In this document: positions 77 through 51,141 of the stretch, piece by piece | How positions within the stretch are numbered: the first letter of the stretch is position 1 | Layout: each line of letters begins with the position of its first letter | From: an uncultured Candidatus Bathyarchaeia archaeon | GTDB lineage: Archaea; Thermoproteota; Bathyarchaeia; 40CM-2-53-6; CAYOZM01 | Assembly (NCBI GenBank): GCA_964533795.1 | Contig: CAZHMI010000001.1 | Span: 51,869-115,868, forward strand | Length of the DNA: 64,000 nt | Reading direction: 5' to 3' | Notes under the pieces: model-generated | Databases searched by the model: none | The model's input: the letters and a program-made list of their open reading frames with translations, nothing else | Told to the model about the DNA's origin: nothing | Position numbers and translations under genes: made by a program

Positions 77-1391
77 ATGAGGAAGAGAGAGAAGGATAGA
101 ACGGATCTTTCGATTGACGACTTCTATAGCATAAAATCGTGGTATAACATCCTTCCAGACTTACCTGAACCACTTCCTCCACCAAAAGAACCTGGTGATG
201 GAATATCGAGAATAAAATTCATGCAAAGTCATGGCGAGAACATGCTTTATTCAAGAATCTTCATCGAAGAGTAGGATCCCCATCCCAAACGAGGTTCTGA
301 AGCTCTATGTGCAAGCTGGTAGACCGCGTCCACTTTATAGAGCTAGACGACTTGAAGAATACTTGAAACTCAAGAGTGTCAAATTGTTCTACAAGAGGGA
401 AGATCTTTCACCAACAGGAAGTCATAAGGTCAACACCGCTATCGCGCAAGCCTTCTTCGCATGGAAAGAAGGAAAAGCGAAACTAATCACAGAGACTGGA
501 GCTGGACAATGGGGAACCGCTCTCTCGTACGCAGCTAAACTACTGGGTCTAGAATGCGTTGTCTTCTGGGTTAGAGCTGTCCACAAATGGAAAACCGATC
601 GAAGCACTCTAATGAAGTTGTATGGGACTGCCGTGTATCCCTCCCCAAGCGATCAAACCGAAACTGGAAGGAAACTGCTTAAAGAAAGCCCAGATCACCC
701 CGGCTCCTTGGGAATCGCGGTCTCAGAAGGACTAGAATATGCCGAGAAGCGAGAAGAAAGCGTATACTGTTTAGGTTCAGTCCTGAACCATGTGCTCATG
801 CACCAGACAATCATCGGCCTTGAAGCAATTAAACAGTTCGAATCAATAGATGAATCCCCTGATCTAATGATAGGATGTCTAGGCGGGGGCAGTAACTTCG
901 GCGGATTCATCTTACCTTTCGCAGGTGAAGTACTGCGAAAGAAGAGAACGTGCGAGTTCCTCGCAGCCCAATCGATGGCTGCACCAAATCTAGTTAAAGG
1001 TCAATACAGGTACGATTTCGCGGATGTAAGCGAACACACCCCTTTATTAAAGATGTGTACTTTGGGCCACGACGTTGAGATGCCCCCGATAAAGGCTGAT
1101 GGTCTGAGGTACCATGCCGCCGCTCCTATCATAAGCCTTCTACGCCACCATGGCGTAGTCAAAGTGAAAGCCTACCCGACAGATGAGAAAGCGATCTTCG
1201 AAGCGGCTAGAATCTTTCTTGGAACAGAGGGATGGCTTGCTGCACCCGAATCAAGCTATGCGATTAGAGCGGCAATAGATGCTGCGCGAGAATTCGAAAA
1301 GAGAAAAGAGAACAAAGTTATAGCATTTAATATTTCAGGCCATGGATTCCTAGATTTGCCAGCTTACAATGAGAAACTTTTCCCGAACTAG
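77..1391 (+). pseudogene. trpB2: TrpB2-type tryptophan synthase beta-chain paralog, reading frame interrupted by a frameshift near 225-275
   Basis: The ORF at 77..274 encodes an N-terminus ([14 protein letters not shown]) that aligns with the N-terminus of the intact TrpB2 at 26673..28067 ([14 protein letters not shown]). The alignment then continues in a different frame in ORF 231..1391, which carries the PLP-lysine motif GSHKVNTA and a GAGQWG glycine-rich loop. This is either a true frameshift or a single-base sequencing error. Confidence 0.55.
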
Positions 1392-2725
1392 CTCTTTGCA
1401 ACCTCTTTTATCGCGCCTTGAATTATCTCAAGAGCAGAGTCCAAAAGATCTCGCTTTATGGTCAATGGCGGAACTATTCTTATCGTAGAGACTCCACATG
1501 TGATTAAGGCTACTCCTCTCCTCCAACACTTCTTCATAATCTCATTGGCCTCTTCCTTCCCTGGAGCCTTGTTCTTAGGGTCTTTTACAATCTCAACCCC
1601 AATCATTAGTCCTTTACCTCGAACGTCGCCTATGATGCTATATTTCTCCTGCAACTCTCTAAGCCGCTTCATCACATATGTTCCTTGCTTCGTAGCGTTC
1701 TCAAGAAGATGCTCATCTCTGATAATGTTGATTACTTCCAGTGCAGCAGCGCAAGCTACAGGGTTTCCGCCAAAGGTATTCGCATGTGAACCTCCTTCCC
1801 AATCCATTAATTCAGTCTTAGCAACTGTGGCGCTGAGAGGAATTCCGGCGGCTATCGATTTCGCGATACAAACGATGTCAGGTTCTACCCCCCAATGTTC
1901 GATTGCAAACCATTTTCCTGTTCTCGCAAGTCCTGACTGAATTTCATCATCAACAAGGAGAATTCCGTACTTGTCTGCGAGTTTTTTCAATCGTTTGAAG
2001 TATTCAGGTGGAGGAAGAACGTAGCCCCCCTCTCCTTGAATTGACTCGAAGAAGATAGCAGCCGTATCTTCAGGTGGGACATATCTCTGAAGAACGTATT
2101 CGTCAATGAAGTCTACGCACCAATAGTTACACTCTGGATACGTCAGTTTGAATGGACATCGATAGCAATTTGGATAAGGCACATGCGTAGCCCCTGGCAT
2201 CAGCGGGAAGAAGTGCCTTCTATGGACAGGTTTACTAGCAGTTAGGCTAAGTGCACCAATCGTTCTTCCGTGAAAGGCGTTTACATATGCAAGGAACAAT
2301 TGTTTGCGCGTGTGCCACTTGGCAAGTTTTATTCCTGCCTCAATAGCCTCTGCTCCGCTATTGCCGTAGAAGACCTTCTTTTCGAATGATCCGGGTGTTA
2401 TCTTACATATCTGTTCCCCTAAATCCACGATGTTCTGATAGTAGAAGTCTGTGTACGAGTAATGGGTGAATTTCTCAGCTTGTTTCTTTACAGCTTCAAC
2501 AACTCTCGGATGACAGTGTCCAACGTTAAGGCAAACGAGCCCTGAGTTGAAATCGATATACTCGTTGCCGTCGAGATCGCGAATTATACAATCTCTCCCA
2601 GACTCTATAGCCAGTGGATAGAATCTAACCAATGACTGAGAAAGAAATTTTTCATCTTTCTCAAGCAGGGCTCTTGTCTTGGGTCCAGGTGGAGTAACGA
2701 CTATCTTCGGATACTCGTAAGTCAT
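1388..2725 (-). CDS. Class III PLP aminotransferase (4-aminobutyrate or acetylornithine aminotransferase-like)
   Basis: Shows the YGNSGAEAIE..K motif region and a HANTFGGNP block, with a length of 445 aa typical of the class. Its 3' end overlaps the convergent TrpB2 pseudogene by 4 bp. Confidence 0.85.
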   Translation of the reverse strand: MTYEYPKIVVTPPGPKTRALLEKDEKFLSQSLVRFYPLAIESGRDCIIRDLDGNEYIDFNSGLVCLNVGHCHPRVVEAVKKQAEKFTHYSYTDFYYQNIVDLGEQICKITPGSFEKKVFYGNSGAEAIEAGIKLAKWHTRKQLFLAYVNAFHGRTIGALSLTASKPVHRRHFFPLMPGATHVPYPNCYRCPFKLTYPECNYWCVDFIDEYVLQRYVPPEDTAAIFFESIQGEGGYVLPPPEYFKRLKKLADKYGILLVDDEIQSGLARTGKWFAIEHWGVEPDIVCIAKSIAAGIPLSATVAKTELMDWEGGSHANTFGGNPVACAAALEVINIIRDEHLLENATKQGTYVMKRLRELQEKYSIIGDVRGKGLMIGVEIVKDPKNKAPGKEEANEIMKKCWRRGVALITCGVSTIRIVPPLTIKRDLLDSALEIIQGAIKEVAKS

Positions 2726-2892
2726 GCTTGGTCCCCAAAATATAGATACTCGGCAACGAAAGTCGCACTCGAAGGCACACGTTATTCCGAGATTCGTTTC
2801 GTCCTGAGCCTGAAAAAGCTGAAATCAAAGGTGATGTACATTAGAATGTTGAGCATATCGAAGGCAACGAACTCGGGTTTAAAAGAATTTCG

Positions 2893-3345
2893 GTGAGTAA
2901 TATGGAACAAGTGGACGAGATAACGAATAGGATCTTGGCTATTCTCGAGAAGAATGCTCGAACATCGTACACTGAGATCGCGAGACAGCTCGGAGTATCT
3001 GAAACCACTATTCGGAACAGAATAAGAGGGCTAATGAAGGAGGGTGTACTCAAAGGGTTTACAACTCGAACATGCCCTGAGAAACTTGGAAAAGCCATAA
3101 CGGCCGTTGTCGGCGTCGATATCGGTGGCGAGACAACACCAGAGATCACCAATAAATTGGCTGACATAAAGGAGGTTTCAGATCTCTATGTCATTACTGG
3201 GGAATTCGATCTTCTATTGAGAGTCGTGTGTGAGAACATAAGTAGGTTGGATGAGATCTTAGAGGGAATTCGATCCTATGGTTTCGTTGAAGGAACAAGA
3301 ACGTTCGTAGTTCTCAGGAAAGTCAAAGAATCCGGATTATCCTAG
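2893..3345 (+). CDS. Lrp/AsnC family transcriptional regulator
   Basis: N-terminal HTH (ILAILEKNARTSYTEIARQLGVSETTIRNRI) followed by a C-terminal RAM domain, 150 aa. Confidence 0.85.
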   Translation: MSNMEQVDEITNRILAILEKNARTSYTEIARQLGVSETTIRNRIRGLMKEGVLKGFTTRTCPEKLGKAITAVVGVDIGGETTPEITNKLADIKEVSDLYVITGEFDLLLRVVCENISRLDEILEGIRSYGFVEGTRTFVVLRKVKESGLS

Positions 3346-3392
3346 ATTCGATTTGCGAACCGTTTATCTTTGAATACAGATAGACGCCGAGG

Positions 3393-3683
3393 CTATTTCT
3401 TGCCTAGAGTTATCTCGATAGTCGATATGCTTGCCATAGTCCCGTCTTGGCGTGTAATATCTTCAGACCCAACGTTAATCGACTTGATCACTAGATCTTT
3501 AACGAAAGCTCTCCGAAGCATCTCGACCGTATCGACTGCCTTACAGATCGCTTGACCTCTTGCCCTTACCATTATTTCTCCTCTACCAGAGTTGAACAGG
3601 GTCACGCATGCCACAACGTAGTTCATCACCGGCTTTTTCCCAATTCGAACAAGGTTTGTCTGGCTAGGAATCATCCATCGCAT
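3393..3683 (-). CDS. albA: Alba DNA/RNA-binding chromatin protein
   Basis: IGKKPVMNYV ... EIMVRARGQAICKAVDTVEMLRR; length and motifs are typical of Alba. The true start may be the second Met. Confidence 0.8.
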   Translation of the reverse strand: MRWMIPSQTNLVRIGKKPVMNYVVACVTLFNSGRGEIMVRARGQAICKAVDTVEMLRRAFVKDLVIKSINVGSEDITRQDGTMASISTIEITLGKK

Positions 3684-4018
3684 CGCTCCGATACAGCCTT
3701 GGATACTTCACCTAAGGAAACATGGTAGTAAGATTAAACTTGCTATTCTGCGGGGACAGCCTATTAGATAGCTTTCTAAACCCTCTACTTAAAAGTATGT
3801 AGTCCATATCACGGCGGCTATAAGGATCATGCCCATCCTCAGGCATAGCGTACTACGGTCCCCTAGGAATGTCTGCGTCGCCTCGCATCCCCTTATTCAT
3901 GTTTTTCCTTATGAACGGTAAAGGCAGAAGAAATTAGGTCAGAGTTTTGAGATCAATTGAGCTAATTGAGATCGCTTGTTCATCCCTTTTGTTAACTCGG
4001 ATGGCCAAAAATAATAGG

Positions 4019-15830: not shown

Positions 15831-17039
15831 TTGATGTTTACTTGCGAAGAGGTGTCAAAGTTGAGAAGCGGACCTATAGCTTCAGCTCGCACTTTGGCTG
15901 TTGAGCCTTCGCCGATAAGGAAACTTGTGGACGCTATTTCTGCTACTTCAGGAGTAGTCGGTCTCCATGTTGGGGAGCCTGACTTTGATACACCTGCCAA
16001 TATTAAAGAGGCTGCGACAAAAGCGCTGAACGCGGGTTACACACATTACACGAATACAGCCGGGGTCCCCGAGCTTCGTGAGGCGATAGCTCAGAAGCTT
16101 AGAAGAGAGAATAAGGTCGATGTTGACCCGGAGAGCGAAGTAATAGTGACACATGGCGGTTACGCAGCAATCTATGTTTCGCTTCAGGCTTTGATAAACC
16201 CGGGTGATGAGGTCCTCTTGATCGAGCCTGCTTGGACCTATGATGGCTTCATAGCTTTGGCTGGAGGAATCAAGGTTCCGTGCCCTCTACACGGTCCGGA
16301 TTTCGAGTTGACGAGAGATGCTCTTGAATCGAAGGTTTCTGATAGGGCTAAGCTGATTATTGTCAGTTCCCCAAACAATCCTACTGGGAATATGTTCTCA
16401 AGGGAGGAGCTGGGGATTGTCGCTCAAGTTGCTGAGAGGAAGAATATGCTTGTCTTGTCTGATGAGGTTTATGAGAAGCTTGTCTATGATGGTCTAAGTC
16501 ACTATAGTATTGCCTCGTTTCCAGGCATGAGGGATAGAACGATAACGGTGAATTCTTTCTCTAAAACTTACGCGATGACTGGGTGGCGTATCGGGTACAT
16601 CGCCGCTAGTAAGGAGATTATTACAGCCATAAGGAAGGTTGTTGCTTACGGTTATGGTTGCATCAATGCGGCTGTCCAGAAGGCTGCCGTAGAGGCTTTG
16701 ACGGGACCGCAGGAGTGTGTCAAGGAGATGCTGGAGGAGTATGATCGCCGGAGACATCTCATAGTCAACGGACTCAACGAGATTTCTGGCATAGAGTGCA
16801 AGAAGCCTAAGGGAGCTTTCTACGCCTTCGCGAATATTTCAAGCTTCAAGCTTCCCTCTCAAAAATTTGCGACGATACTGCTGCAAAAGGCTAAGGTTGC
16901 GACTATACCTGGAAGCGTCTTCGGCTCGTCCGGCGAGGGGTACCTTAGAATCTCATTCGCTACATCACAAAGGAATATAGTTGAGGGGCTCGACAGAATC
17001 AGAAAGTTCGTTAATGTATTAAGACAGAGCCTTTCGTAG
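15831..17039 (+). CDS. Class I/II PLP aminotransferase (aspartate aminotransferase-like)
   Basis: SSPNNPTGNMFS and SFSKTYAMTGWRIGY (PLP lysine) motifs. Confidence 0.85.
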   Translation: MMFTCEEVSKLRSGPIASARTLAVEPSPIRKLVDAISATSGVVGLHVGEPDFDTPANIKEAATKALNAGYTHYTNTAGVPELREAIAQKLRRENKVDVDPESEVIVTHGGYAAIYVSLQALINPGDEVLLIEPAWTYDGFIALAGGIKVPCPLHGPDFELTRDALESKVSDRAKLIIVSSPNNPTGNMFSREELGIVAQVAERKNMLVLSDEVYEKLVYDGLSHYSIASFPGMRDRTITVNSFSKTYAMTGWRIGYIAASKEIITAIRKVVAYGYGCINAAVQKAAVEALTGPQECVKEMLEEYDRRRHLIVNGLNEISGIECKKPKGAFYAFANISSFKLPSQKFATILLQKAKVATIPGSVFGSSGEGYLRISFATSQRNIVEGLDRIRKFVNVLRQSLS

Positions 17040-17549: not shown

Positions 17550-18368
17550 CTACAGGAGGCAGTTTGCGATCATCCTTAAACCTATCAGTATTATGATGAG
17601 ACCGAAGATTCTCACTAGAGTTTTTTCTTTAATCCTATTTCCTATTGCCGCGCCGAGTTGAGTTCCAGCTATCGTTCCGAGAATTAGATACGCGGCGTAT
17701 TCAAGCTGAGCATTTCCGAATGTTAGATGAGTAACGGCGCCCGAGATGGAGGTGAATATCATTATGAACATTGAGGCAGCCACAGCTAGATGGATTGGAA
17801 ATCCCACAGCTAAACTCAATACAGGCACCATGACTACCCCACCGCCGATGCCGAGCAAACCTGACGCATAGCCTCCTAGAAAGCTGAGCGCTAATCCCGG
17901 TTTCATGTTGGCTGAGTATTCGAATATGAGACCCTTTGAGTCTACGAGTCTTCTATGCCATCCTGTACTCGCGGTCGGGCTTCTGATAGAGGAAAACTTC
18001 AAGATCCCAATCATTCTTAAAGCGATAAGCATCAAGGAGACGCCGAATACCGCTCCAAGCACTCTATCAGTTATGAGGTTGGTTGTGTATGCGCCAAGGA
18101 ATGCTCCTGGAATAGTTCCCATGGTGAATATTAAGCCTAGCCTATAGTCGATCCTCCTTTGCCTTGCATAGGCAAACGTCGACAAAAGCGCTGTGAAAAT
18201 AATAGTCACTAAACTTGTTCCTACAGCTTGGTGAACCGGTAAGTTGAAAACTAGATTCAAGATTGGAACTATAAGAAAGCCGCCTCCCACGCCAGTCATA
18301 GCTGCAACCATTCCAACTAAGACTGCGAGCAGAGCTAATGTGAGGATTGCTATTACTTCCACAGTCAA
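17550..18368 (-). CDS. TauE/SafE (DUF81) family sulfite/anion exporter-like permease
   Basis: Two internal repeats with GxGGG motifs (MTGVGGGFLIVPILN; LGIGGGVVMVPVL); polytopic membrane protein. Confidence 0.8.
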   Translation of the reverse strand: MTVEVIAILTLALLAVLVGMVAAMTGVGGGFLIVPILNLVFNLPVHQAVGTSLVTIIFTALLSTFAYARQRRIDYRLGLIFTMGTIPGAFLGAYTTNLITDRVLGAVFGVSLMLIALRMIGILKFSSIRSPTASTGWHRRLVDSKGLIFEYSANMKPGLALSFLGGYASGLLGIGGGVVMVPVLSLAVGFPIHLAVAASMFIMIFTSISGAVTHLTFGNAQLEYAAYLILGTIAGTQLGAAIGNRIKEKTLVRIFGLIIILIGLRMIANCLL

Positions 18369-20426: not shown

Positions 20427-21353
20427 TTGCGCCCTACCTATGTGAGCATGATGTTTGCACAAGATGCCCTAGACCTGATCGGCAACACTCCGCTGGTCAA
20501 AATCAACAGGCTAACTCAAGAGAACGATGCAATCATACTCGCGAAGCTAGAGCAATACAATATAGGCGGCTCAGTCAAAGACCGAATCGCGAAATACATG
20601 ATTGAACTCGCAGAGAAAGAAGGCAAACTAACCAAAGACAAGATAATACTCGAACCTACATCCGGGAACACCGGCATCGGCTTAGCAATTGTAGCCGCTG
20701 TCAAAGGATACCGAGCATTATTTGTCATGCCCGAGTCCGTAAGCACAGAGAGAAGGAGAATCCTTCAAGCATTTGGAGCAGAAGTCATCCTAACGCCGGG
20801 TGAGAAAGGCACCCCGGGCGCAATTGAAGTAGGCTACAGAATGGCTGAAGAACATCCTGAGAAATACTTCCTTCCAGACCAATTCAACAATCCCCACAAC
20901 ATTCTGGCGCATTATGAGACAACAGGTAGAGAGATCATCGAACAAACTGCTGGAAAGCTAGATGCCTTCATAGCGGCCATGGGAACCACTGGAACGCTGA
21001 TGGGCGCTGGAAAGCGACTAAAGGAATATGATCCGAAGATCAAAGTCATAGGCGTTGAACCTGTCTTCGGTCAAAGGATTCAGGGCATGAGAAGCATGAA
21101 GGAACCTTTCCCGCCTTCCATCTTCGATGCCAGAAAGCTTGATGAACGGATCTACGTCCGCGAGAAAGACGCCTTTGAAATCGCAAGAGAACTAGCACGC
21201 AAAGAGGGGTTACTTGTCGGCATGAGTTCAGGCGCGGTCATGTTCGTTGCACTGCAGAAAGCTAGAGAATTCGGGAAAGGCAAAGTGATCGTTGCGGTTC
21301 TACCGGACACTGGTGAACGCTACTTGAGCACTGCTCTCTTCGACGTGAAGTGA
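20427..21353 (+). CDS. cysK: Cysteine synthase / O-phosphoserine(O-acetylserine) sulfhydrylase family (fold-type II PLP)
   Basis: SVKDRIA (PLP lysine), the EPTSGNTGIGLA glycine loop, and GxSSGA near the C-terminus. The true start is probably the internal MMFAQ. The stop overlaps the next gene by 4 bp. Confidence 0.85.
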   Translation: MRPTYVSMMFAQDALDLIGNTPLVKINRLTQENDAIILAKLEQYNIGGSVKDRIAKYMIELAEKEGKLTKDKIILEPTSGNTGIGLAIVAAVKGYRALFVMPESVSTERRRILQAFGAEVILTPGEKGTPGAIEVGYRMAEEHPEKYFLPDQFNNPHNILAHYETTGREIIEQTAGKLDAFIAAMGTTGTLMGAGKRLKEYDPKIKVIGVEPVFGQRIQGMRSMKEPFPPSIFDARKLDERIYVREKDAFEIARELARKEGLLVGMSSGAVMFVALQKAREFGKGKVIVAVLPDTGERYLSTALFDVK

Positions 21354-21985
21354 AGGACACTGTGTTAATCGATATCTTAAGACTTAGAGATCATGAAGAA
21401 GTCGATCCCTTCCGGTTTAAGAAACTCATGAATGAAATGATTGAGGATCAGTTCCAGAGAGACCCAATCATCGTTGACAAAGAATCCGGCGTAGTGTTGG
21501 ATGGACATCATAGACGGAACATCCTGAAGACCCTAGGCTACTCGAAGATTGCTTCTTACCAAGTTCAATATATCAAAGACGATAAGATCAAAGTCAAGAC
21601 TTGGTATCCAATCGTAGTAGACTTGGAAAAGAAATTGATGCAGACGATCTATGACTACAAGATAGAGTTAACGCCAAATACCAAGAATAATTCGAAGAAC
21701 CAACTTGTACTCAAGGGTAAAGCCTTCCAGTTAGTATCTAACAGAAACGAGGTCATGAAGTCTTTACTTGGGAAGATAAGATTCCGGTACGTACCCACTT
21801 TGAGTATTGCCTTACGCTTAGTCGAGGAAGGGGGAGCCGCTGCCGCCTTTGTCTTTGAGCCAGTTAAAAAAGAGGATGTGTTGGAGGCTGCTCTTTCAGG
21901 AGAACCTTTCCCACCGAAGACTACGAGGCATATTTTCGCTAGTAGGCCGAGAAACTGGTTCATACCTCTAAAGGAATTAAAGTAA
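21350..21985 (+). CDS. ParB/Srx-fold protein, inferred ADP-dependent free-serine kinase (SerK)-like (copy A)
   Basis: DPIIVD...VLDGHHR is a ParB N-terminal/sulfiredoxin-type motif. It is translationally coupled to cysK. A paralog lies at 25906..26577, and the two copies are 100% identical over their last 124 nt. Confidence 0.55.
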   Translation: MKDTVLIDILRLRDHEEVDPFRFKKLMNEMIEDQFQRDPIIVDKESGVVLDGHHRRNILKTLGYSKIASYQVQYIKDDKIKVKTWYPIVVDLEKKLMQTIYDYKIELTPNTKNNSKNQLVLKGKAFQLVSNRNEVMKSLLGKIRFRYVPTLSIALRLVEEGGAAAAFVFEPVKKEDVLEAALSGEPFPPKTTRHIFASRPRNWFIPLKELK

Positions 21986-21991
21986 AGACTT
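21868..21991. repeat. 124-bp perfect inverted repeat, left copy (3' end of ParB/SerK-like copy A)
   Basis: Reverse complement is identical to 25901..26024, checked base by base. Identity is lost immediately outside on both sides. Confidence 0.9.
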
Positions 21992-22208
21992 AGAAGATAT
22001 GAAGACTATTTCGCAACTAGCATCTTCTTAGAGATTATCTGCAGTATCAGGATTTATTTCCTAAAGGGTCTAGCCGCTGAAACTTTGTATACCGGTTGAA
22101 GATTTATCGTGTTTTAGTTTGAATGAATGGTTTCAAAGAAACGTCTATAAGGTCATCAATTGAGTTTGCTTTCCTTGTTGACCGTGCGTTTTGTTGGAGC
22201 AGATCTGA

Positions 22209-23087
22209 TTGAAAGCTGAACCTGCTTGTATTCCATGTATTCTGCACGATGTATTCTGCACTGGAAAGCTTGCGACGAATAATGTGAATACGCAGATGGC
22301 CATTCTGAGAGAAGCAAGCAGAGTAGTGGCAGAGAAGACCTCAGCCCATGTCACCCCTTCGCAACTCAACACACACGCTTACAGAGTCGTGAAGCGTATG
22401 ACTGGCATCGACGATCCATATAAAAGGATCAAACGTGCCAGTGGTTCGATTGCGGTGAAGGTTGCCAAGCTTGTCGAAAGAGAACTTACGAAAATAAGGA
22501 ATCCTGAAGTCAGATTTAGACGATGCATCCTTTATGCGATTGCAGGAAACCTTATAGATTACGGGGTTATGGGGCACACATTTCGGGGGAAGAAGAGTCT
22601 TGAGAAAGCCATCAGGCAAGGATTGGCTTTTGATGATGTCTCAAAGATCTTTAGAAAGGTGAGATCATCGCGGAATGTGCTCTATCTACTGGATAACAAT
22701 GGTGAAGCTTTCTTTGATGCTTTGTTGATAAAGGAAATAAAGCGGTATGGACCAAGAGTGGCGGTCGTAGTTAGAGGCGGCCCAGTGTCAAACGACGTAA
22801 CTTTGGCTGACATCTCACAGATAAGCTTGGATAAGCTTGCCGACGAGGTTATCACTACAGGTAGCGATGCGTATGGAATTGAGTTCGCTAGAGCAAGCAG
22901 GAAACTTATGAAAACGTTGAAGACATGCGATCTGATAATAAGTAAAGGCCAAGCGAACTATGAGGATCTTAGCGAGATAGAGGACGGCATATCAGGATCG
23001 ATTGTCTATCTTTTGAACGCGAAATGCGAACCCATGGCACGAACAATGAAGGTTAAGATCGGCGAAAACGTAGCGAAGTACGTTTAA
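22209..23087 (+). CDS. DUF89 (ARMT1-like) metal-dependent phosphatase family protein
   Basis: DNNGEAFFD and KGQANYE signature motifs of DUF89. Confidence 0.7.
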   Translation: MKAEPACIPCILHDVFCTGKLATNNVNTQMAILREASRVVAEKTSAHVTPSQLNTHAYRVVKRMTGIDDPYKRIKRASGSIAVKVAKLVERELTKIRNPEVRFRRCILYAIAGNLIDYGVMGHTFRGKKSLEKAIRQGLAFDDVSKIFRKVRSSRNVLYLLDNNGEAFFDALLIKEIKRYGPRVAVVVRGGPVSNDVTLADISQISLDKLADEVITTGSDAYGIEFARASRKLMKTLKTCDLIISKGQANYEDLSEIEDGISGSIVYLLNAKCEPMARTMKVKIGENVAKYV

Positions 23088-23163
23088 GGCGAGGGTTCTT
23101 GCCAAGAGGGTTCCGCCAAAACACCTGAATTGCGTGATGCGGCAGGCTGAATTTAAGCTATCA

Positions 23164-24024
23164 TTACAGAATCGTTTTGATTTCTATCGCTTCTTCTATT
23201 GTTTCTAGCGCCTTTACTCCATCCCGAATAGAGGGGGCTGGATGGACCTTCTGCTTTACGGACGAGATAAAAGAGTTCAACTCTTTTTCAAGAGGCGGCT
23301 TCCAAGCGATCGGAACTTCTGCCCTGTCTACGAACAGTCTCCATCTGTTATCTTCAAAGAAGGCATAAACGACTCTGTCTTCAAACTCAAGCACCCATCG
23401 CCGAACCCTCGGTCCAAGACAATCGGATATAATCATAGCTTCTGTTCCGCCTTCGAACTTGAGCTCCAACTGCCCAAAATGAAATCTTTCCATGGAACGG
23501 ATCACTGTTCTTCGAGGTTCGCCTAACATCCAGCGCAGTAGGTCCACATCATGAATCGCTAGATCTTTCAAGACCCCCGTTTTCTGCGCCACAAGAGTTG
23601 GGGTGCCTGACCTCTGGCAGAAGATTCTCAATGGCTTCTTCAATGCGCGTGTAACAAAATGAATTTTCCGAAATACCGGGTTGAATCTTTCAATAAAGCC
23701 GACCATGACAATTATGTCAGGGTTTTCTTTGGCAGCATCCTCTATCTTTCGTGCTTCCTGTAAGGAGCTCGCCATAGGCTTTTCGATGAAAGTATGTCTT
23801 CCTGCCAGTATAGCTTTCGAGGCCACATCGGCTAAAGATTCGGCTGGAACAACGACATCAACAACATCAACGTTTTCTATTAGACTGTCTAGCGAGGGTG
23901 TTGAGTTAGAGTAACGGGGGTCATAGATTGCTCTTAGTTCAATATCTGCATGTCTGCTCCATGCGTTGTAGTGTCTCTTCCCCCAGTTTCCGAAGCCCAC
24001 TAAACCCAATTTCAGCTTTGACAT
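23164..24024 (-). CDS. Gfo/Idh/MocA family NAD(P)-dependent oxidoreductase
   Basis: N-terminal Rossmann motif LGLVGFGNWG and the EKP motif (TFIEKPMA). Confidence 0.8.
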   Translation of the reverse strand: MSKLKLGLVGFGNWGKRHYNAWSRHADIELRAIYDPRYSNSTPSLDSLIENVDVVDVVVPAESLADVASKAILAGRHTFIEKPMASSLQEARKIEDAAKENPDIIVMVGFIERFNPVFRKIHFVTRALKKPLRIFCQRSGTPTLVAQKTGVLKDLAIHDVDLLRWMLGEPRRTVIRSMERFHFGQLELKFEGGTEAMIISDCLGPRVRRWVLEFEDRVVYAFFEDNRWRLFVDRAEVPIAWKPPLEKELNSFISSVKQKVHPAPSIRDGVKALETIEEAIEIKTIL

Positions 24025-24027
24025 CCG

Positions 24028-24354
24028 CTATCCCTTCTCAATCTGTTTTCTAAGCTCGTTCTGCCAGACTCCAAGATCGCCTTTACGAATGACAGTATCC
24101 CAAGCCTCCTCTATGTCATCTACATCAATTTTTCTTTTCGACTGAGAGGCAATCCAATTCGCTTGTTTCTGGATGAAACGGCGTAGCTTGTCCTTAGAAA
24201 CGCGTAGATTCTTGATGAATTCCTGACTTTCTTCAGAGTCCAGCAATTCCTCAACCCTAAAATCGGCCTCACTCGTTAGTGGCAAATCTGTGGGTGATTC
24301 AAGTGATTTGTTGTCCAGTTTTCTGTCGTGGCTCAAGAGTTTCTCCTGATTCAA
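24028..24354 (-). CDS. Hypothetical acidic/charged small protein
   Basis: ORF abutting the oxidoreductase gene (4-bp spacing); no motifs recognised. Confidence 0.35.
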   Translation of the reverse strand: MNQEKLLSHDRKLDNKSLESPTDLPLTSEADFRVEELLDSEESQEFIKNLRVSKDKLRRFIQKQANWIASQSKRKIDVDDIEEAWDTVIRKGDLGVWQNELRKQIEKG

Positions 24355-24477
24355 TAGAGAACTGCTCGAAATTTATGTAAGTATCGGAAACCTGAGGTTA
24401 ACCGCCAAGATAGAGTCATGCTTCACCCGCTTCGCCACCTTTGTAGAGTAGTATAAAAGGAGGAATGTGCACGTTGA

Positions 24478-25884
24478 ATGGAGACCACGTCAATGGCGAG
24501 TTTGAATAGAAGTCGTTTTGCAGCACTCGTGATCATTGCGCTTTGCATTAGCATTAGTCTATTGGCCTTCTTCTACTTCGGTGTCCTACAAAGCGTCTAT
24601 CAAGAGCGAACGACGGGGCAAGACGCGTATAGCCAGCAGACTGAATTTCTGCTTCGCGAGGTTTTAGAAAAGATAGGCCAAGTTAGAGAACTCTCTCCAC
24701 CACAAAACATACCTTTGAAGGCCGTCACGGTCGACTGGGTTGAGGAGAACTGGGGAAAAAAATTTGCTGAAGAAGCATCGACGGAGTTACAAGTTGAAGA
24801 AGAGATCTATAAAGCACTTTTCCTCATGCCTCAGAACCTTTCTCTTGCTGACGTTATGGTTGAGCAGTCTGGGGCTACGATGGCGGCGGTGTGGGAAGGT
24901 AGCTTGTATGTTGTTAGAGAACATTTCAATCCATTCGATAAACTGTCTGCGGAGCGGACTTTGGCTCATGAGATTATGCACATCATGCAGGAGCATTACT
25001 TCAAGGATCCTGACGCGCGTCTTCACGACGAACTCCAAGCTTGGGGCGCTCTAATAGAAGGAGACGCAGGATTTACTGCGGACAAGTATATAGACGAAGC
25101 AATGGCTAGACCCGTAATTTCGGATGTCCTCGTATTTGTCTCCCTTTCTGAGAAACCATTGATCGTGACTCACTTCCTCGCAGTGGAAATGCCAGAATCA
25201 CTTGTTGAACTATGGCTTTTCCGCTACAGATACGGGGAGAATTTTGTCTCTGCGTTATACGGAGTAGGCGGGTGGGATAAGGTTAACGCAGCCTACATGA
25301 ATCCTCCTCGAACTACTGAACAGATTTTGCATCCGGAAAAGTATCTTGAAGGTGAGAGTTTCGCGGTGGTAGATTCTATCTCGTTGAATAGTTCCTACTG
25401 GAATCTTGTTAAGACGGAAAGGTTTGGCGAACATTTCGTACGTGTAATGTTGAGCCGCCACATACCGCGAGATGATGCTGTAAAGGCGGCAGAGGGATGG
25501 CAAGGAGACAATTTCACGTATTATAGGAACGAAGAAAGTCATCTATTCATATGGAAGATCGTTTGGGATACTGAGCGCGACTCGATTGAATTCTTCGATT
25601 CGTTTGGACAAATGATGGATGCTGTCGGAGCTCGTCAGATACAGCCTAGCTGCAAATGTTCCTCGAATAACACCGTCAAGTGGAAAGCTGGAAATCAATA
25701 TGTTTCACTCGTAAGAAACCAATCGTCAACCATCATCACTGGTTCCACTGAGCTGAACGGGTACCAGCCAAATTTCTATGCAAGCTCGCCCATCCCATTT
25801 CTGGCCGTATCTTCGGGCTCGTACGACATGAAAGATCTATATTTGTGCCAAGAGAACTTGAAAACTTCTAGAAGATTCGCTTAA
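24478..25884 (+). CDS. Membrane-anchored putative zinc metallopeptidase (HExxH)
   Basis: N-terminal TM (AALVIIALCISISLLAFFYF) and an HEIMHIMQEH (HExxHxxQ) motif. Confidence 0.5.
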   Translation: METTSMASLNRSRFAALVIIALCISISLLAFFYFGVLQSVYQERTTGQDAYSQQTEFLLREVLEKIGQVRELSPPQNIPLKAVTVDWVEENWGKKFAEEASTELQVEEEIYKALFLMPQNLSLADVMVEQSGATMAAVWEGSLYVVREHFNPFDKLSAERTLAHEIMHIMQEHYFKDPDARLHDELQAWGALIEGDAGFTADKYIDEAMARPVISDVLVFVSLSEKPLIVTHFLAVEMPESLVELWLFRYRYGENFVSALYGVGGWDKVNAAYMNPPRTTEQILHPEKYLEGESFAVVDSISLNSSYWNLVKTERFGEHFVRVMLSRHIPRDDAVKAAEGWQGDNFTYYRNEESHLFIWKIVWDTERDSIEFFDSFGQMMDAVGARQIQPSCKCSSNNTVKWKAGNQYVSLVRNQSSTIITGSTELNGYQPNFYASSPIPFLAVSSGSYDMKDLYLCQENLKTSRRFA

Positions 25885-25900
25885 TCAATACGCCCGTTCA

Positions 25901-26024
25901 AGTCTTTACTTTAATTCCTTTAGAGGTATGAACCAGTTTCTCGGCCTACTAGCGAAAATATGCCTCGTAGTCTTCGGTGGGAAAGGTTCTCCTGAAAGAG
26001 CAGCCTCCAACACATCCTCTTTAC
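25901..26024. repeat. 124-bp perfect inverted repeat, right copy (3' end of ParB/SerK-like copy B)
   Basis: Identical to the reverse complement of 21868..21991. Confidence 0.9.
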
Positions 26025-26577
26025 TTATCGGATCGAAGATTATTGCACAGCTTGCTCTTCCAGTCTCAACAAGTTTTCTGGCAAACGTCGCAGATGGCGC
26101 ATAATTAATCCTGACTTTTCCCACTAGAACGCCCATTATTCTTCTCCTATCCGATCTCACTGTCAGTATTCTATCGCGAAATATTAGATGACCTGAGTTG
26201 CCTCGCGCTTCCCTATCTGGATTTATTCCGCTGTCTCCCAGAAGCTTCAGCAGGCTACTCTCAGAATCCATAATCGTTGGATACCAAGCTTTCACCATTA
26301 TGCTAGCGTCGTTCAGATAGTTGACAGAATGAGCGGCGATCCTTGAGCAGCCCAATGTTTTCAATATTCTTACTCTGTGATGACCATCAAGGATTACCTT
26401 ATGGTTTGCGTCGATGATTATTGGGTCCCTTTGATATCCGTCCTGAACCAATTCCTTTTTCAATTCTTCTAGATGGAATGGATCTATTTCTTCGTGTTCT
26501 TTCAGCTCTGAGATTTTGGTCAAGGCAAGTGGCGGCCTAGCACTTGCCTGAATAGCTATAATCGCTGACATATTCAA
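25906..26577 (-). CDS. ParB/Srx-fold protein, inferred SerK-like (copy B)
   Basis: DPIIIDANHKVILDGHHR motif. Its N-terminal half matches copy A at about 55% amino-acid identity (eyeballed over ~90 residues), and its last 38 codons are nucleotide-identical to copy A. It lies immediately downstream of TrpB2. Confidence 0.55.
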   Translation of the reverse strand: MNMSAIIAIQASARPPLALTKISELKEHEEIDPFHLEELKKELVQDGYQRDPIIIDANHKVILDGHHRVRILKTLGCSRIAAHSVNYLNDASIMVKAWYPTIMDSESSLLKLLGDSGINPDREARGNSGHLIFRDRILTVRSDRRRIMGVLVGKVRINYAPSATFARKLVETGRASCAIIFDPISKEDVLEAALSGEPFPPKTTRHIFASRPRNWFIPLKELK

Positions 26578-26672
26578 GCGCTGAAGCCCTCAATGGATGC
26601 TTTTACCGAGAAATCTTGTCCAGCTTGTGGAATCAAATGGAGCTTTACGTTCCTTGTTGGGAAGGGTAAAGG

Positions 26673-28067
26673 TTAGTAAGGCAAGGTTTCCAGCCATGGA
26701 TAAAGCTCCCTCAGCTTCTTCATGGCCTTCTGCACTTCTTCTTGTGGGTACGCGTAGGGTGGAAGTTTGCCTTGGAGGTAGTCGTCGAAGGCTTGCATGT
26801 CGAAGTGTCCGTGGCCACATAGAAGGAACAGGATGGTCTTCTCCTCGCCAGTTTCCTTGCATCTCAACGCTTCGTCGATGACGCCTTTAATGGCGTGGGA
26901 TGGCTCTGGAGCCGGTATCGTGCCTTCAGTCTTGGCGAAAAGCTTGGCTGAGTCAAAGACTTCCACTTGGTTGTAGGCTCTTGTTTCCACTTTCTTCTCC
27001 AAGGCGAGCAAGCATAAGGTGGGAGCCATACCGTGATAGCGCAGGCCTCCCGCATGGATCGGTGGCGGTATGAACTCGTGGCCTAAGGTATGCATCTTAA
27101 TCAAGGGGCTTAGCCTCGCCGTGTCACCATGGTCGTACATGTATTCTCCCTTGGTAATGGAGGGACAAGCCGTGGGTTCAACAGCTACGAACTTGATGTC
27201 CTTCGGGGCCTTTCCTGAAACTTTGTCATAATAGAAGGGCCAGTAAAGCCCAGAGAAGCTGCTGCCTCCGCCTATACACCCGATTATTACGTCCGGGTAA
27301 TCGTCCACCACTTCAAGTTGCTTTTGGGCTTCCAACCCTATCACGGTTTGGTGCGTGAGGACGTGGTTGAAGACGCTTCCTATGCCGTAATTGGCTTCCT
27401 CGTGGACGAGGGCGTCCTCTGCGGCTTCGCTGATGGCGATCCCTAGGCTGCCAAGATTGTCGGGATCTTCTTTTAAGATCTTTCTGCCAGCCTCTGTTTT
27501 GGTGCTCGGACTTGGATATACCTCGCCACCCCAAAGCTCCATTAGAACCCTTCTGTAGGGCTTCTGATAGTAGCTCGCCTTCACCATATACACGGTGCAC
27601 TTAAGCCCGAAAGTCATACAACCAAAGACTAGGGCGGAGCCCCATTGGCCAGCCCCCGTTTCCGTAGTCATGCGTTCTACGCCTTCCTTCATATTGTAGT
27701 ATGCCTGCGGAACGGCGGTGTTGGGCTTATGGCTTCCTGGGGGGCTAACGCCCTCGTACTTGTAATAGATCTTGGCAGGGGTCTTCAAAGCCTTCTCTAG
27801 TCCAAAAGCCCTGAAGAGAGGGGTAGGTCTCCAGAGCTGATAGACTTCCCTTACTTCTTCAGGAATGTCTATCCATCTTTCCTTGCTAAACTCTTGAGCA
27901 ATAATCTCTTTAGGAAACAGCTTGGGGACGATTCCAGGTCCAGGTGCCCTCTTGTCTGGCTCTATTGTTGGAGGCAACGGTTTCGGTAGATCAGGTAGTA
28001 TGCAGTACCATTGTTTGGGTATTTCCTCTTCATTCAATAAGATCTTCTTAGATGGCATGTTTTTCAC
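26673..28067 (-). CDS. trpB2: TrpB2-type tryptophan synthase beta chain (stand-alone, fold-type II PLP)
   Basis: N-terminal extension typical of TrpB2 (464 aa); [12 protein letters not shown] lysine; GAGQWGSA; [10 protein letters not shown]. Confidence 0.85.
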
Positions 28068-28148
28068 TTACCACGCTGTGGTGTATTGGCGCTGAATATT
28101 TCACAGTAGTGGGGATATAGGAAATATTTTAAGCTTACGCGTACAAAT

Positions 28149-28670
28149 ATGTACGCGTGGCGCTCCATGTGGAACAGGATAGTGAAATACCTAGAAACCC
28201 ATCCAGAGCGGTTATCCGTGGCAAAACTACTAGTGCAGAATGGTCTGAGCATACGGAATGGAAAGATATATTGTAACGAGATAGAGGTTCCGCCCATAAG
28301 AATAGCTAGGGTCTCAAGGGTTGATCGAAGAACCGTAACCGAGACAATAAAAACCATCGAAGGAAACCCTGATCTCCAAGTCATATTCAAGAACATAAGG
28401 TCGGCAGGCCACTCGCTCAAAGAGATCGCTCGACATCTGGGCTTGGGCGTGGTGGAGATAACGCCTATGGATGCGAAAACCCCGGGAATACTTGCTCGTT
28501 CAGCTACATTGATAGCCGAGAGAAACATCAGCATCAGACAAGCGATAGTTGATGATCCGGAACTCTCGCCAGAGCCGAAGTTGACACTGATTACTGAGAC
28601 AAAAATCCCTGGAGAACTCGTTCCAGAGCTTCTTAAGGTAAGAGGTGTCGCAACAGTCTCAATATACTAG
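28149..28670 (+). CDS. Putative regulator of amino-acid metabolism (HTH plus C-terminal ACT-like domain), divergent from trpB2
   Basis: HTH-like LSVAKLLVQNGLSIRNG and a C-terminal ACT-like beta-alpha-beta region. Its divergent placement recalls TrpY. Confidence 0.4.
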   Translation: MYAWRSMWNRIVKYLETHPERLSVAKLLVQNGLSIRNGKIYCNEIEVPPIRIARVSRVDRRTVTETIKTIEGNPDLQVIFKNIRSAGHSLKEIARHLGLGVVEITPMDAKTPGILARSATLIAERNISIRQAIVDDPELSPEPKLTLITETKIPGELVPELLKVRGVATVSIY

Positions 28671-28925: not shown

Positions 28926-30251
28926 TTATCTTACGCGCAGGTATTCGTAGGCGTCTCTAGCTGTATCGAATGCGAAGTGCACCTTCTGAAAGCTTTTTCT
29001 GAATTCCTCCACATCTCCTCTCACTTTCTCGGTCGGTTCGTTGTCGATTACAACTCTCTTCATAAACTCGGCGATTTCGATCATCTCAGATTCTCTCATG
29101 CCCAACCTAGTCACTTCCGATGCCCCGACTCTTATTCCTCCAGGGTTTTGGAAGTGCCGACCTTCTTTAATGTCCCATGGAAGCAGATTTCTATTCAGTA
29201 TAATGTTTGCTTTTTCCAGCTTCCTTTCTAAATCGCCGCCGAGCCCGTACTTTGTTACATCTATGATTACCACATGAGACTCCGTGAATCCTTTATGTTC
29301 GCCTAGCACTCGAAAACCTCGTTCGAAAAGCGCTTGCCCCAGAGCCTTGGCGTTCTTCACTATTTGTCTACTATACTCTTTTCCAAACGCGAGCATCTCA
29401 GCTAATACAACAGCTTTGCCAGCAACATGGTGCAAGTGATGGTTACTAACATTACTCGGAAAGACTTTGCTCTTTATCAAATCACCATACTTGCTCCAAG
29501 AGAGTATTAAGCCGCCTTGGGGTCCAGGCAACGTCTTATGTGTGCTACAAGTCATGGCGTCCGCTCCCTCCCTCAATGGATCTTGAAAAACCCCGCCCGC
29601 GATCAACCCGGCCACATGGGCTCCATCATAGCAAGCTTTTGCGCCTACGCTATGAAACGTCTCAACCAATTCTTTGACTGGATGCGGGAAGGGCAAGACG
29701 CTAGCGCCGAACATAGCGAGTTTGGGAGGAAAATTCTCCTTCGCCATCTCCTCAACTTTGGCCTTCGTCTTATCGACGTCGATGGTCAACTCTTTATGGT
29801 CAAATGGAAAATACTCAACCTTGAGTCCGTGCACAGCGCCAGCTGTGCCGCCGAACTCAAGTTTTCCCATGCTTATATGACCGCCAGCAGGGATAGCCAA
29901 AGCCATCATTCGGTCGCCCGGGTTGCTGAATGCGGTATAAACTGAAAGGTTAGCGCATACGCCTGAAACTGGGCGGACATCGGCAAACTCAGCGTTGAAC
30001 AGTTTCTTAGCCAGTTCGACACAGAGAAGTTCAACCTGATCTATAAAGGTGCAACCAGCGTAAACTCTCTCTCCAGGCCATCCCTCTGCATAGCGGTTTC
30101 CGAAATCTGTTATAATCGCTTCTCGAACCGCTGGGCTTGGAATATTTTCGCTGGCGATCAGTGGAATGCTTTTGGAGAACCAGTCGTGATGCTGCTGCAG
30201 AAGTTGAAACACTTTATCATAATACTCACGAGGCGTAGACATCTCTCTCAA
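28926..30251 (-). CDS. glyA: Serine hydroxymethyltransferase
   Basis: SIPLIASEN...; PLP lysine region THKTLPGPQGG; 441 aa. Confidence 0.9.
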   Translation of the reverse strand: MREMSTPREYYDKVFQLLQQHHDWFSKSIPLIASENIPSPAVREAIITDFGNRYAEGWPGERVYAGCTFIDQVELLCVELAKKLFNAEFADVRPVSGVCANLSVYTAFSNPGDRMMALAIPAGGHISMGKLEFGGTAGAVHGLKVEYFPFDHKELTIDVDKTKAKVEEMAKENFPPKLAMFGASVLPFPHPVKELVETFHSVGAKACYDGAHVAGLIAGGVFQDPLREGADAMTCSTHKTLPGPQGGLILSWSKYGDLIKSKVFPSNVSNHHLHHVAGKAVVLAEMLAFGKEYSRQIVKNAKALGQALFERGFRVLGEHKGFTESHVVIIDVTKYGLGGDLERKLEKANIILNRNLLPWDIKEGRHFQNPGGIRVGASEVTRLGMRESEMIEIAEFMKRVVIDNEPTEKVRGDVEEFRKSFQKVHFAFDTARDAYEYLRVR

Positions 30252-51025: not shown

Positions 51026-51141
51026 GCCGGGATGGCTGAGTGGTTAAAGCGACGGCCTCGAGATCTTTATACGGATGGGCCTGACAGGATAGCCGTTGGG
51101 CGCTTGCGCCCTCGAGGGTTCGAATCCCTCTCCCGGCGCCA
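51026..51141 (+). tRNA. tRNA-Ser (anticodon CGA), type II long variable arm, ~28-nt intron in the anticodon loop, encoded CCA
   Basis: Acceptor stem GCCGGGA/TCCCGGC; D arm GCT-GAGTGGTTAA-AGC; anticodon stem ACGGC/GCCGT with loop CTCGAGA, interrupted by an intron at ~51064-51091; variable arm GGGCGCTTGCGCCC; T arm GAGGG-TTCGAAT-CCCTC; then G-CCA. Confidence 0.7.

Follow-up and report, generated by a model that had tools for sequence, protein, structure and literature searches.

We have analysed a stretch of 64,000 nucleotides (nt) of contig CAZHMI010000001.1 from an uncultured Candidatus Bathyarchaeia archaeon (assembly GCA_964533795.1), hereafter the window, and focus on two gene pairs in it. 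In each pair, the gene of a fold-type-II pyridoxal phosphate (PLP) enzyme is followed by the gene of a small protein with a ParB/sulfiredoxin (Srx)-like domain, here called SerK1 and SerK2 (Table 1). An earlier interpretation of the DNA, the sequence-only reading, had proposed that both proteins are SerK-like serine kinases, which supply O-phospho-L-serine (OPS) to a CysK-like cysteine synthase and a TrpB2-type tryptophan synthase, respectively. All the open reading frames (ORFs) that it named are present where it placed them. Its motif claim, DPIIxD and ILDGHHR in both proteins, holds for DPII(V/I)D and LDGHHR, with the trivial exception that SerK1 has VVLDGHHR. It also put a PLP enzyme gene directly upstream of each kinase gene. 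This is accurate for cysK and serK1, whose stop and start codons overlap by 4 bp as described (the GTG start and the TGA stop share GTGA), but trpB2 and serK2 do not abut and are separated by a 95-nt spacer.

Table 1 Features of the two serK modules and their surroundings (positions within the window)
Feature	Position	Strand	Evidence or content
cysK-like, CysK/CysM-type fold-II PLP enzyme, proposed O-phosphoserine sulfhydrylase	20427..21353	+	PALP 253 bits; TIGR01136 cysKM 373.6 bits vs cutoff 344
serK1, SerK-family free serine kinase homolog, 211 aa	21350..21985	+	NF053625 and 5X0B matches, motifs
Inverted-repeat arm 1: serK1 3' end and 6 nt past the stop	21869..21991		DNA alignment, repeat search
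Segment between the serK paralogs, 3.9 kb	21992..25899		ARMT1-like phosphatase, GFO/IDH/MocA oxidoreductase, 108-aa ORF, Hvo_1808/DUF8575 surface protein
Inverted-repeat arm 2: serK2 3' end	25900..26022		DNA alignment, repeat search
serK2, SerK-family free serine kinase homolog, 223 aa, downstream of trpB2	25906..26577	-	NF053625, 5X0B, AlphaFold2 model
trpB2, TrpB2-type tryptophan synthase beta-like; proposed OPS + indole to tryptophan	26673..28067	-	NF009057, TIGR01415
Divergent trpB2/trpY-like promoter region, 81 nt	28068..28148		sequence
Perfect palindrome CGCGTACA-N4-TGTACGCG, candidate operator, overlaps the trpY-like ATG	28138..28157		sequence
TrpY-family helix-turn-helix (HTH)/ACT regulator, divergent from trpB2-serK2	28149..28670	+	NF053754
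Serine hydroxymethyltransferase (SHMT)	28926..30251	-	Pfam SHMT 258 bits; NF000586 455 bits

SerK1 and SerK2 share 52% identity over 207 aa (E 9e-84). For both of them, the top NCBIfam match is the archaeal ADP-dependent SerK, followed by SbnI, and Pfam at E<=0.01 yields no match for either protein, ParBc included. In a sequence search of the PDB, both align over their full length with the SerK of Thermococcus kodakarensis (Tk-SerK, 5X0B), at an E-value of 4e-12 for SerK1 (5X0B residues 17–241) and 2e-12 for SerK2. The Pyrococcus furiosus protein 1VK1 and then SbnI come next in this ranking, and for a ParB nuclease E already exceeds 0.1. An AlphaFold2 model of SerK2 (pLDDT 88.8, pTM 0.82) was compared with known structures by Foldseek: it matches 5X0K/5X0B with a TM-score of 0.83 over ~228 columns (E 3e-18) and SbnI with 0.74–0.77, while the matches to ParB, Noc, KorB and sulfiredoxin cover ~75–88 N-terminal columns at 0.23–0.29. 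The two-domain fold is present, i.e., a ParB/Srx-like N-domain together with the SerK-specific C-terminal domain. Structure and sequence comparison thus group both ORFs with SerK and SbnI, as had been proposed, and not with partition ParB or sulfiredoxin, so that SerK1 and SerK2 are true, if distant, members of the SerK/SbnI family.

The catalytic residues that a SerK assignment calls for are also kept in both ORFs. Glu30 of Tk-SerK (in KPHEQL), which is marked by the deposited mutant structures 5X0E (E30A) and 5X0J (E30Q), aligns with E16 of SerK1 (RDHEEV) and E29 of SerK2 (KEHEEI), and the DGHHR motif of the nucleotide site and the C-terminal PKTTRH align to the same motifs in 5X0B. The motifs HEE, DGHHR, WYP and PKTTRH lie at positions 15, 51, 85 and 189 of SerK1 and at 28, 64, 98 and 201 of SerK2. 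In an alignment of 29 homologs, going down to 28% identity, H-E, D-G-x-H-R and P-K-T-T-R-H are invariant. We infer from the sequences that SerK1 and SerK2 would phosphorylate free L-serine to OPS. Within the SerK family, the phosphate donor is ADP in Thermococcales and ATP in Desulfurococcales and SbnI, and the donor of the window kinases may be one of these or another NTP.

The enzyme encoded upstream of serK2 is indeed of the TrpB2 type. It scores above the curated cutoffs of both TrpB2 models (NF009057, 698.5 vs 366 bits; TIGR01415, 632.1 vs 518.85 bits) and matches the Sulfolobus TrpB2 structures 6HUL_B and 4QYS_B with 473 and 408 bits, respectively. In the HMMER alignment, its R343 (GGLRYHG) sits at the active-site Asp of TrpB1 (GLDYPGVGP; Asp300, which is Asp305 in other numbering), and this Arg is invariant in ten TrpB2 sequences, all the SerK-linked ones included. 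We take the Arg at this position to be the single OPS-specificity residue of TrpB2. The replacement of TrpB1 D300 by Arg in TrpB2 has been described before (Merkl 2007), and TrpB2 enzymes are cited as being OPS-dependent (Busch 2014).

The enzyme encoded upstream of serK1 scores just under the cutoffs of both the cysK and the cysM equivalog model. It has 308 aa, and its best PDB matches are CysK/CysM proteins of 303–318 aa. Its active-site loop RIQGMR222SMKE aligns with IPGIR297RVETG of the O-phosphoserine sulfhydrylase (OPSS) of Aeropyrum pernix; classical CysK structures read GxxGPHK-IQGIGAGF here, with Gly at the R222 position and an extra segment of ~7 residues. The residue equivalent to R222 is Arg in the orthologs of two related loci (L073 and L076; L numbers designate such loci throughout) and in L001, and Lys in L009. 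A positive residue at Arg297 of the A. pernix enzyme is involved in the recognition of O-phosphoserine (Makino 2016). Both PLP partners therefore look OPS-competent, each with an OPS-associated Arg, and OPS use by the window CysK is plausible, though less secure than that by TrpB2. Two other identities were tried for this enzyme. A role like that of SbnA, a diaminopropionate synthase, is not favoured (215 bits vs the SbnA model cutoff of 350), and cystathionine beta-synthase was rejected at 309 bits vs a cutoff of 510.

A homolog search retrieved relatives of both kinases, i.e., a SerK2-type group (69–91% identity) and a SerK1-type group (47–54%). Five independent Joint Genome Institute contigs (L073–L076 and L081) carry the two-module layout as well: a TrpY-like gene on the minus strand, TrpB2, SerK2, ~4–5 kb of other sequence, and SerK1 and CysK on the minus strand. 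The 4-bp overlap of cysK and serK1 recurs in L073 and L076, and in L076 trpB2 and serK2 overlap by 4 bp as well. The gene pairing, whose conservation the proposal presupposed, is thus found in these close relatives and also in distant lineages. A survey at the species level covered GTDB representatives, and its 72 loci belong to Bathyarchaeia, Asgard lineages, Thermoproteota, Thermoplasmatota and other groups.

The Pfam families of the flanking genes were counted for 71 GTDB loci, with 137 genes immediately beside a SerK homolog. PALP is the commonest family (17/137), followed by ThyX (8), Trm56 (6), CbiQ (6) and SerA-like (2-Hacid_dh) dehydrogenases (4). The 17 PALP neighbours consist of 6 TrpB2, 2 canonical CysK and 9 long CysK-like proteins. 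PLP enzymes of the CysK/TrpB type make up 17 of the 137 genes at distance 1 but only 2 of 854 non-adjacent genes of these loci, with an odds ratio of 60 and a Fisher p of 1.3e-13 that is optimistic, since the loci are phylogenetically related. The adjacency of SerK and PLP enzymes exceeds chance. All of the nine long CysK-like neighbours have the Arg297 equivalent, and the one in L049 has A. pernix OPSS as its best PDB match (181 bits vs 85 for the next).

In a crude neighbour-joining (NJ) tree, which is indicative only, the two window paralogs are sisters in a Bathyarchaeia-type clade, whose members flank either CysK (L001, L009) or TrpB2 (L029, L045, L057). A distant Thermoproteota clade in the same tree (L025, L028, L032) is TrpB2-linked as well. 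At least two SerK clades that lie far apart thus show the linkage to TrpB2. Context look-ups added further members (L077, L079, L080, L162, L164). The SerK-like family as a whole comprises 2970 cluster representatives at E<=1e-3 and 238 at E<=1e-30. It ranges over Bathyarchaeia, Asgard, Thermoproteota, Thermoplasmatota, Methanofastidiosa and a few bacteria, among them Methylobacterium, Methylorubrum and a Deltaproteobacteria metagenome-assembled genome (MAG) with an SHMT gene upstream.

Several other features of the survey are recorded here. Minimal SerK homologs of 120–180 aa, in which the ParB-like N-domain is joined nearly directly to PKTTRH with no middle domain, are found in L009, L027, L037, L038, L045, L049, L053, L057, L062 and others, and several of them adjoin TrpB2 or OPSS-type enzymes. 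The long CysK-like neighbours that accompany short SerK homologs are from Acidilobaceae, Wolframiiraptor and one Sulfolobales MAG. An Asgard SerK-like clade (235–246 aa; L003, L005–L007, L010, L012, L013, L017) is nearest to Tk-SerK in the NJ tree and has a context unlike the PLP-enzyme one, with a conserved gene of ~259–272 aa upstream and one of ~196–202 aa downstream. In L164, a cysteinyl-tRNA synthetase gene (2283–3695) lies ~0.8 kb downstream of the cysK-serK pair, which ties this module once more to the supply of cysteine. A conserved ORF of 166–171 aa follows the Thermoproteota trpB2-serK pairs; it is not TrpY-like and has no NCBIfam match.

A TrpY-like regulator divergent from trpB2 had also been proposed, and this is upheld by a score above the cutoff of NF053754 TrpY_fam (191.4 vs 180 bits) and by the 81-nt spacer between the two genes, while the match to the ACT domain of Pfam is sub-threshold (22.6 vs 27 bits). 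The TrpY-like gene occupies the same position in L076 and L081, and it adjoins TrpB2 in L083–L085, L088 and L090. The promoter region, with its AT-rich TATA-like elements, is largely kept in L076. The perfect palindrome CGCGTACA-N4-TGTACGCG at its edge is a candidate TrpY operator. The pattern GTACAN4TGTAC occurs once in the 64 kb, vs 0.01 occurrences expected, and only one half of the palindrome is kept in L076. Its TGTACA-like half-sites resemble what we take to be the TRP box of Methanothermobacter thermautotrophicus. In addition, the trpB2-serK pair of L045 is preceded by a divergent TrpR-related regulator of the YerC/YecD type, which is unrelated to TrpY. Trp-related regulators thus flank trpB2-serK twice independently, from the TrpY family in the window and from YerC/YecD in L045.

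Beyond the TrpY-like gene, the window holds a Sec61-beta gene and the SHMT gene. The SHMT neighbourhood is kept in L076 and L081, and SHMT could plausibly supply serine, the substrate, on the spot. The closest relative, L081, has a full trpE-G-D-C-F-B1-A operon between the SHMT gene and the Sec61-beta/TrpY-like genes that precede trpB2-serK2 (L081 1021–7514). The 64-kb window itself has no canonical trp operon, and only its two TrpB2 genes match a TrpB1 query. Rfam gave no cis-regulatory RNA in the locus, and a scan of the locus for consensus promoters and terminators was uninformative for an archaeon.

The two serK genes have a peculiar relation at their 3' ends. Over their last 117 nt and the 6 nt that follow the stop codon, the identity is 100%, and it drops to ~55–60% elsewhere. 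As the genes converge, this identical 123-nt tract forms a perfect inverted repeat flanking 3.9 kb (Table 1); the repeat search returned arms of 140 nt with 95% identity (21852–21991 and 25900–26039). In L073 and L076, 74–80 of the terminal 120 nt agree between the paralogs, compared with 117 in the window, and we regard the repeat as a lineage-specific tract of gene conversion. A separate perfect tract in L081 has another 3' boundary, which points to recombination that has recurred. Moreover, in the window and L081 the genes of the 3.9-kb segment mirror those of L073, L074 and L076 in order and strand. The simplest reading is that recurrent recombination and gene conversion between the 3' ends of the paralogs inverted the segment. 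As a result, one serK is always followed by the ARMT1-like phosphatase gene in the same direction, namely serK1 here and serK2 in L073. A minor caveat to this reading is that the assembler may have been misled about how the 3.9-kb segment is oriented.

Phosphatase genes adjoin serK pairs in more than one lineage. The one in the window is the ARMT1-like damage-control phosphatase (22209–23087), and in the Thermoproteota clade a HAD phosphatase of the MDP-1 type, from a family unrelated to the ARMT1-like one, is divergent from trpB2-serK (L077 3959–4492; L079 4014–4529). These serK-adjacent phosphatases may serve OPS homeostasis or the clearing of mis-phosphorylated products.

Our interpretation is that each SerK probably provides OPS to the PLP beta-replacement enzyme whose gene directly precedes its own. 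What carries it is the homology, the fold and the catalytic motifs of the kinases, the OPS-type Arg in both partners, the tight operonic coupling and the recurrent pairings. L-serine would come partly from SHMT and partly from other sources, and SerK1 or SerK2 would convert it to OPS. The CysM/OPSS-like enzyme would then form cysteine from OPS and sulfide (or another sulfur donor), and TrpB2 would form tryptophan from OPS and indole. By the duplication of the kinase, the supply of OPS would be placed in two separately controlled operons, each presumably co-transcribed, with the trpB2-serK2 operon repressed by the divergent TrpY-like protein, possibly in response to tryptophan.

On the other hand, a number of observations weigh against this interpretation. 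The NF053625 SerK scores (94 bits for SerK1, over residues 3–211, and 67.8 bits for SerK2) are well under the equivalog cutoff of 380 bits, and the identity to Tk-SerK is only 22–23%. Judged by sequence, the two proteins are distant subfamily members and not equivalogs of the Thermococcales enzyme. A recent survey reported a SerK-like archaeal protein that bound CTP rather than ATP, so the phosphate donor and the activity may vary across the family. For the cysteine branch, the window CysK is overall closest in the PDB to O-acetylserine sulfhydrylases and CysM, and the ~100-aa N-terminal extension of OPSS is absent from it. For the regulation, the TrpY homolog of T. kodakarensis does not regulate trp, which means that membership of the TrpY family alone is no proof of Trp-responsive control. 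In the window, trpB2 and serK2 also stand 95 nt apart.

The linkage between TrpB2 and SerK is also a minority arrangement. The recurrence of adjacent trpB2 and ParB-like genes in archaea, for which a survey had been suggested, is borne out from the side of SerK but not from that of TrpB2: SerK is missing beside TrpB2 in all of the 80 closest metagenomic loci (55–91% identity; 67 of them with >=400 nt downstream), and L139 alone shows one weak partial match (E 7e-5). The SerK-less loci even include one with a TrpB2 91% identical to that of the window, and the second TrpB2 of the window (231–1391) also lacks a kinase. These counts, too, tell against a general partnership, and they indicate that TrpB2 usually works without a linked kinase. 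Considering the recurrent TrpY-like gene at SerK-less TrpB2 loci, TrpY-TrpB2 is the common core and SerK a lineage-restricted addition, which is presumably useful where OPS is not otherwise abundant. The genes after TrpB2 in L082 and L083 encode a polyprenyl synthetase, LysE and others and have no relation to OPS.

Four other accounts of the locus, and one extension of ours, have to be considered. The extension is that SerK, beyond adding to the OPS pool of the cell, binds its cognate PLP enzyme physically and channels the substrate to it. For TrpB2, it would thus have a role like that of TrpA for TrpB1, i.e., of a partner subunit that hands one substrate straight to the beta-replacement site. 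Channelling would account for the separate kinase paralog of each PLP enzyme and for the overlap of stop and start codons. It would also explain why minimal SerK forms persist beside TrpB2 and OPSS, and why gene conversion has homogenised only the shared catalytic C-terminal 38 residues. Nevertheless, we regard such a complex as unlikely.

Alternatively, the two proteins may be ParB-fold kinases or NTP-binding enzymes with another substrate or role, such as another hydroxy-amino acid or a regulatory or chaperone-like partnership, with CysK using O-acetylserine and TrpB2 using serine. The low SerK scores, the CTP-binding relative and the overall similarity of CysK to O-acetylserine sulfhydrylases would fit this account, as would the many SerK neighbours of PLP enzymes that are short and without a middle domain. 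It is rather unlikely, as the catalytic Glu and all the family-invariant motifs are retained, the fold matches SerK over its full length, and both partners carry the OPS-associated Arg. Furthermore, the long CysK-like protein of L049 best matches an enzyme that is experimentally OPS-specific, and Tk-SerK is specific for serine (Makino 2016).

A second account takes the serine kinases to work mainly in serine assimilation or OPS homeostasis, from serine via OPS and 3-phosphohydroxypyruvate to 3-phosphoglycerate, as proposed for Thermococcales and Desulfurococcales. In Desulfurococcales, serK adjoins the genes of 3-phosphoglycerate dehydrogenase and an aminotransferase (Makino 2016). The four SerA-like dehydrogenases flanking SerK homologs in the census, the SHMT and class I/II aminotransferase genes near the window modules, and the adjoining phosphatases (ARMT1-like here and MDP-1 in Thermoproteota) are in line with it. 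However, none of the genes scanned on either side of and between the modules (14321–35611) is of the SerA/SerC type, the coupling by overlapping stop and start codons is specific to OPS-type beta-replacement enzymes, and two paralogs in two biosynthetic operons are hard to square with catabolism. We therefore consider it quite improbable.

The remaining two accounts can be set aside briefly. That the proteins are of the ParB or sulfiredoxin type (partition, nuclease or peroxiredoxin repair) and lie beside PLP enzymes by coincidence has in its favour that relatives are publicly annotated as 'ParB N-terminal domain-containing protein' (the other label in use being 'hypothetical protein') and that nuclease activity was once ascribed to the P. 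furiosus homolog, but it is very improbable given that fold and domain coverage rule out this identity (~80 residues at a TM-score of 0.25–0.29 vs 0.83 for SerK, no HTH or dimerisation domain, no Cys in DGHHR, unlike GCHR of Srx) and that the enrichment of PLP neighbours is strong and specific to distance 1. Equally remote is the possibility that a chimeric join or a collapsed repeat in the assembly produced the two-module layout or the identical 3' ends: an assembler might stumble over a perfect inverted repeat of 123 nt, and the inverted orientation is seen in just those two contigs that have perfect tracts, the window and L081, yet the flanking order TrpY-TrpB2-SerK2 ... SerK1-CysK is shared by five independent assemblies, which exclude a chimera, with three lineages free of perfect repeats, the L081 tract has different boundaries, and any ambiguity could touch only the orientation of the middle segment and not the existence of the modules.

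We then compared the proposed pairs with known systems. The first is the route from SerK (TK0378) to CysK (TK1687) in T. kodakarensis, which has a kinase of the same family, two-domain fold and motifs, and the same proposed chemistry from serine via OPS to cysteine (Makino 2016; 5X0B–5X0K). As in that route, the window CysK has a positive residue at the position of Arg297 in the A. pernix enzyme. Apart from the low identity of the kinases, the window differs in the translational coupling of kinase and cysteine synthase and in having a short CysM-like enzyme as the partner. A. pernix OPSS (1WKV/3VSA) shares the Arg297 equivalent with the window CysK, which lacks the N-terminal extension and is overall closer to bacterial CysK/CysM; the A. 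pernix pathway draws its OPS from 3-phosphoglycerate.

SbnI-SbnA of the staphyloferrin B cluster of Staphylococcus aureus is the closest precedent for a kinase and an OPS-dependent beta-replacement enzyme as a genetic unit, for a SerK-family kinase is clustered there with a CysK-fold PLP enzyme that consumes its OPS. SbnI is also the second-best family and fold match of the window kinases. This system differs in being bacterial, and SbnI is a transcriptional regulator as well, according to its NCBIfam name. It yields a diaminopropionate precursor for a siderophore instead of an amino acid for proteins, and it includes a partner of the SbnB type.

With the OPS-dependent TrpB2 enzymes (Busch 2014; 4QYS, 6HUL, 6HTE), the window enzyme shares the family models, the structural matches and the Arg in place of Asp300, and differs in that a serine kinase gene follows trpB2. 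As with TrpY of M. thermautotrophicus, a regulator of this family is divergent from a trp gene and a palindrome lies in the shared promoter region, but the adjacent operon is trpB2-serK and not trpEGCFBAD, and the window operator is a candidate. A neighbourhood analysis of 2007 described no conserved context of trpB2 outside trp operons (Merkl 2007). All the components are thus already known, and the pairing of a kinase with an OPS-consuming CysK-fold enzyme has its bacterial precedent in SbnI-SbnA. As to the trpB2-linked SerK, which had been put forward as a system not described before, no literature linking TrpB2 to a serine kinase was found in the searchable corpus, although a prior mention is not fully excluded.

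Some further genes of the window are noted for completeness. The second TrpB2-type gene (plus strand) encodes 386 aa (NF009057, 515 bits) with the Arg conserved; it converges on a class-III aminotransferase gene (1388–2725) and lies near an AsnC/Lrp regulator (2893–3345). Upstream of cysK are a TauE/SafE-family anion exporter (17550–18368) and the class I/II aminotransferase (15831–17039), which also occur near the module in L073, L074 and L076 and may have to do with the sulfur donor or with serine metabolism. A 113-nt tRNA on the plus strand (51026–51138; Rfam 52.7 bits), missed by ARAGORN, is consistent with an intron-containing archaeal tRNA.

TrpB2 is widespread, and its physiological role has been debated since its discovery, with OPS being the substrate preferred in vitro; the literature consulted offers no genomic or in vivo connection of TrpB2 to a source of OPS. 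The serine kinase gene coupled to trpB2, together with Trp-type regulators, in at least two distant archaeal lineages provides independent genomic evidence for OPS as the physiological substrate. It also defines a two-enzyme pathway that is directly testable, from serine, a nucleoside tri- or diphosphate and indole to tryptophan. No clear SerK homologs were reported outside four hyperthermophile genera when the family was defined (Makino 2016), and the family now extends well past them. Overall, the pairings suggest that the activation of serine by phosphorylation beside the consuming enzyme is a recurrent archaeal design, which includes cysteine synthesis by enzymes of both the CysK/CysM type and the Aeropyrum-type OPSS. 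For annotation, hundreds of proteins now called 'ParB N-terminal domain-containing' or hypothetical could be renamed, and gaps in the cysteine and tryptophan pathways of uncultured archaea could be filled.

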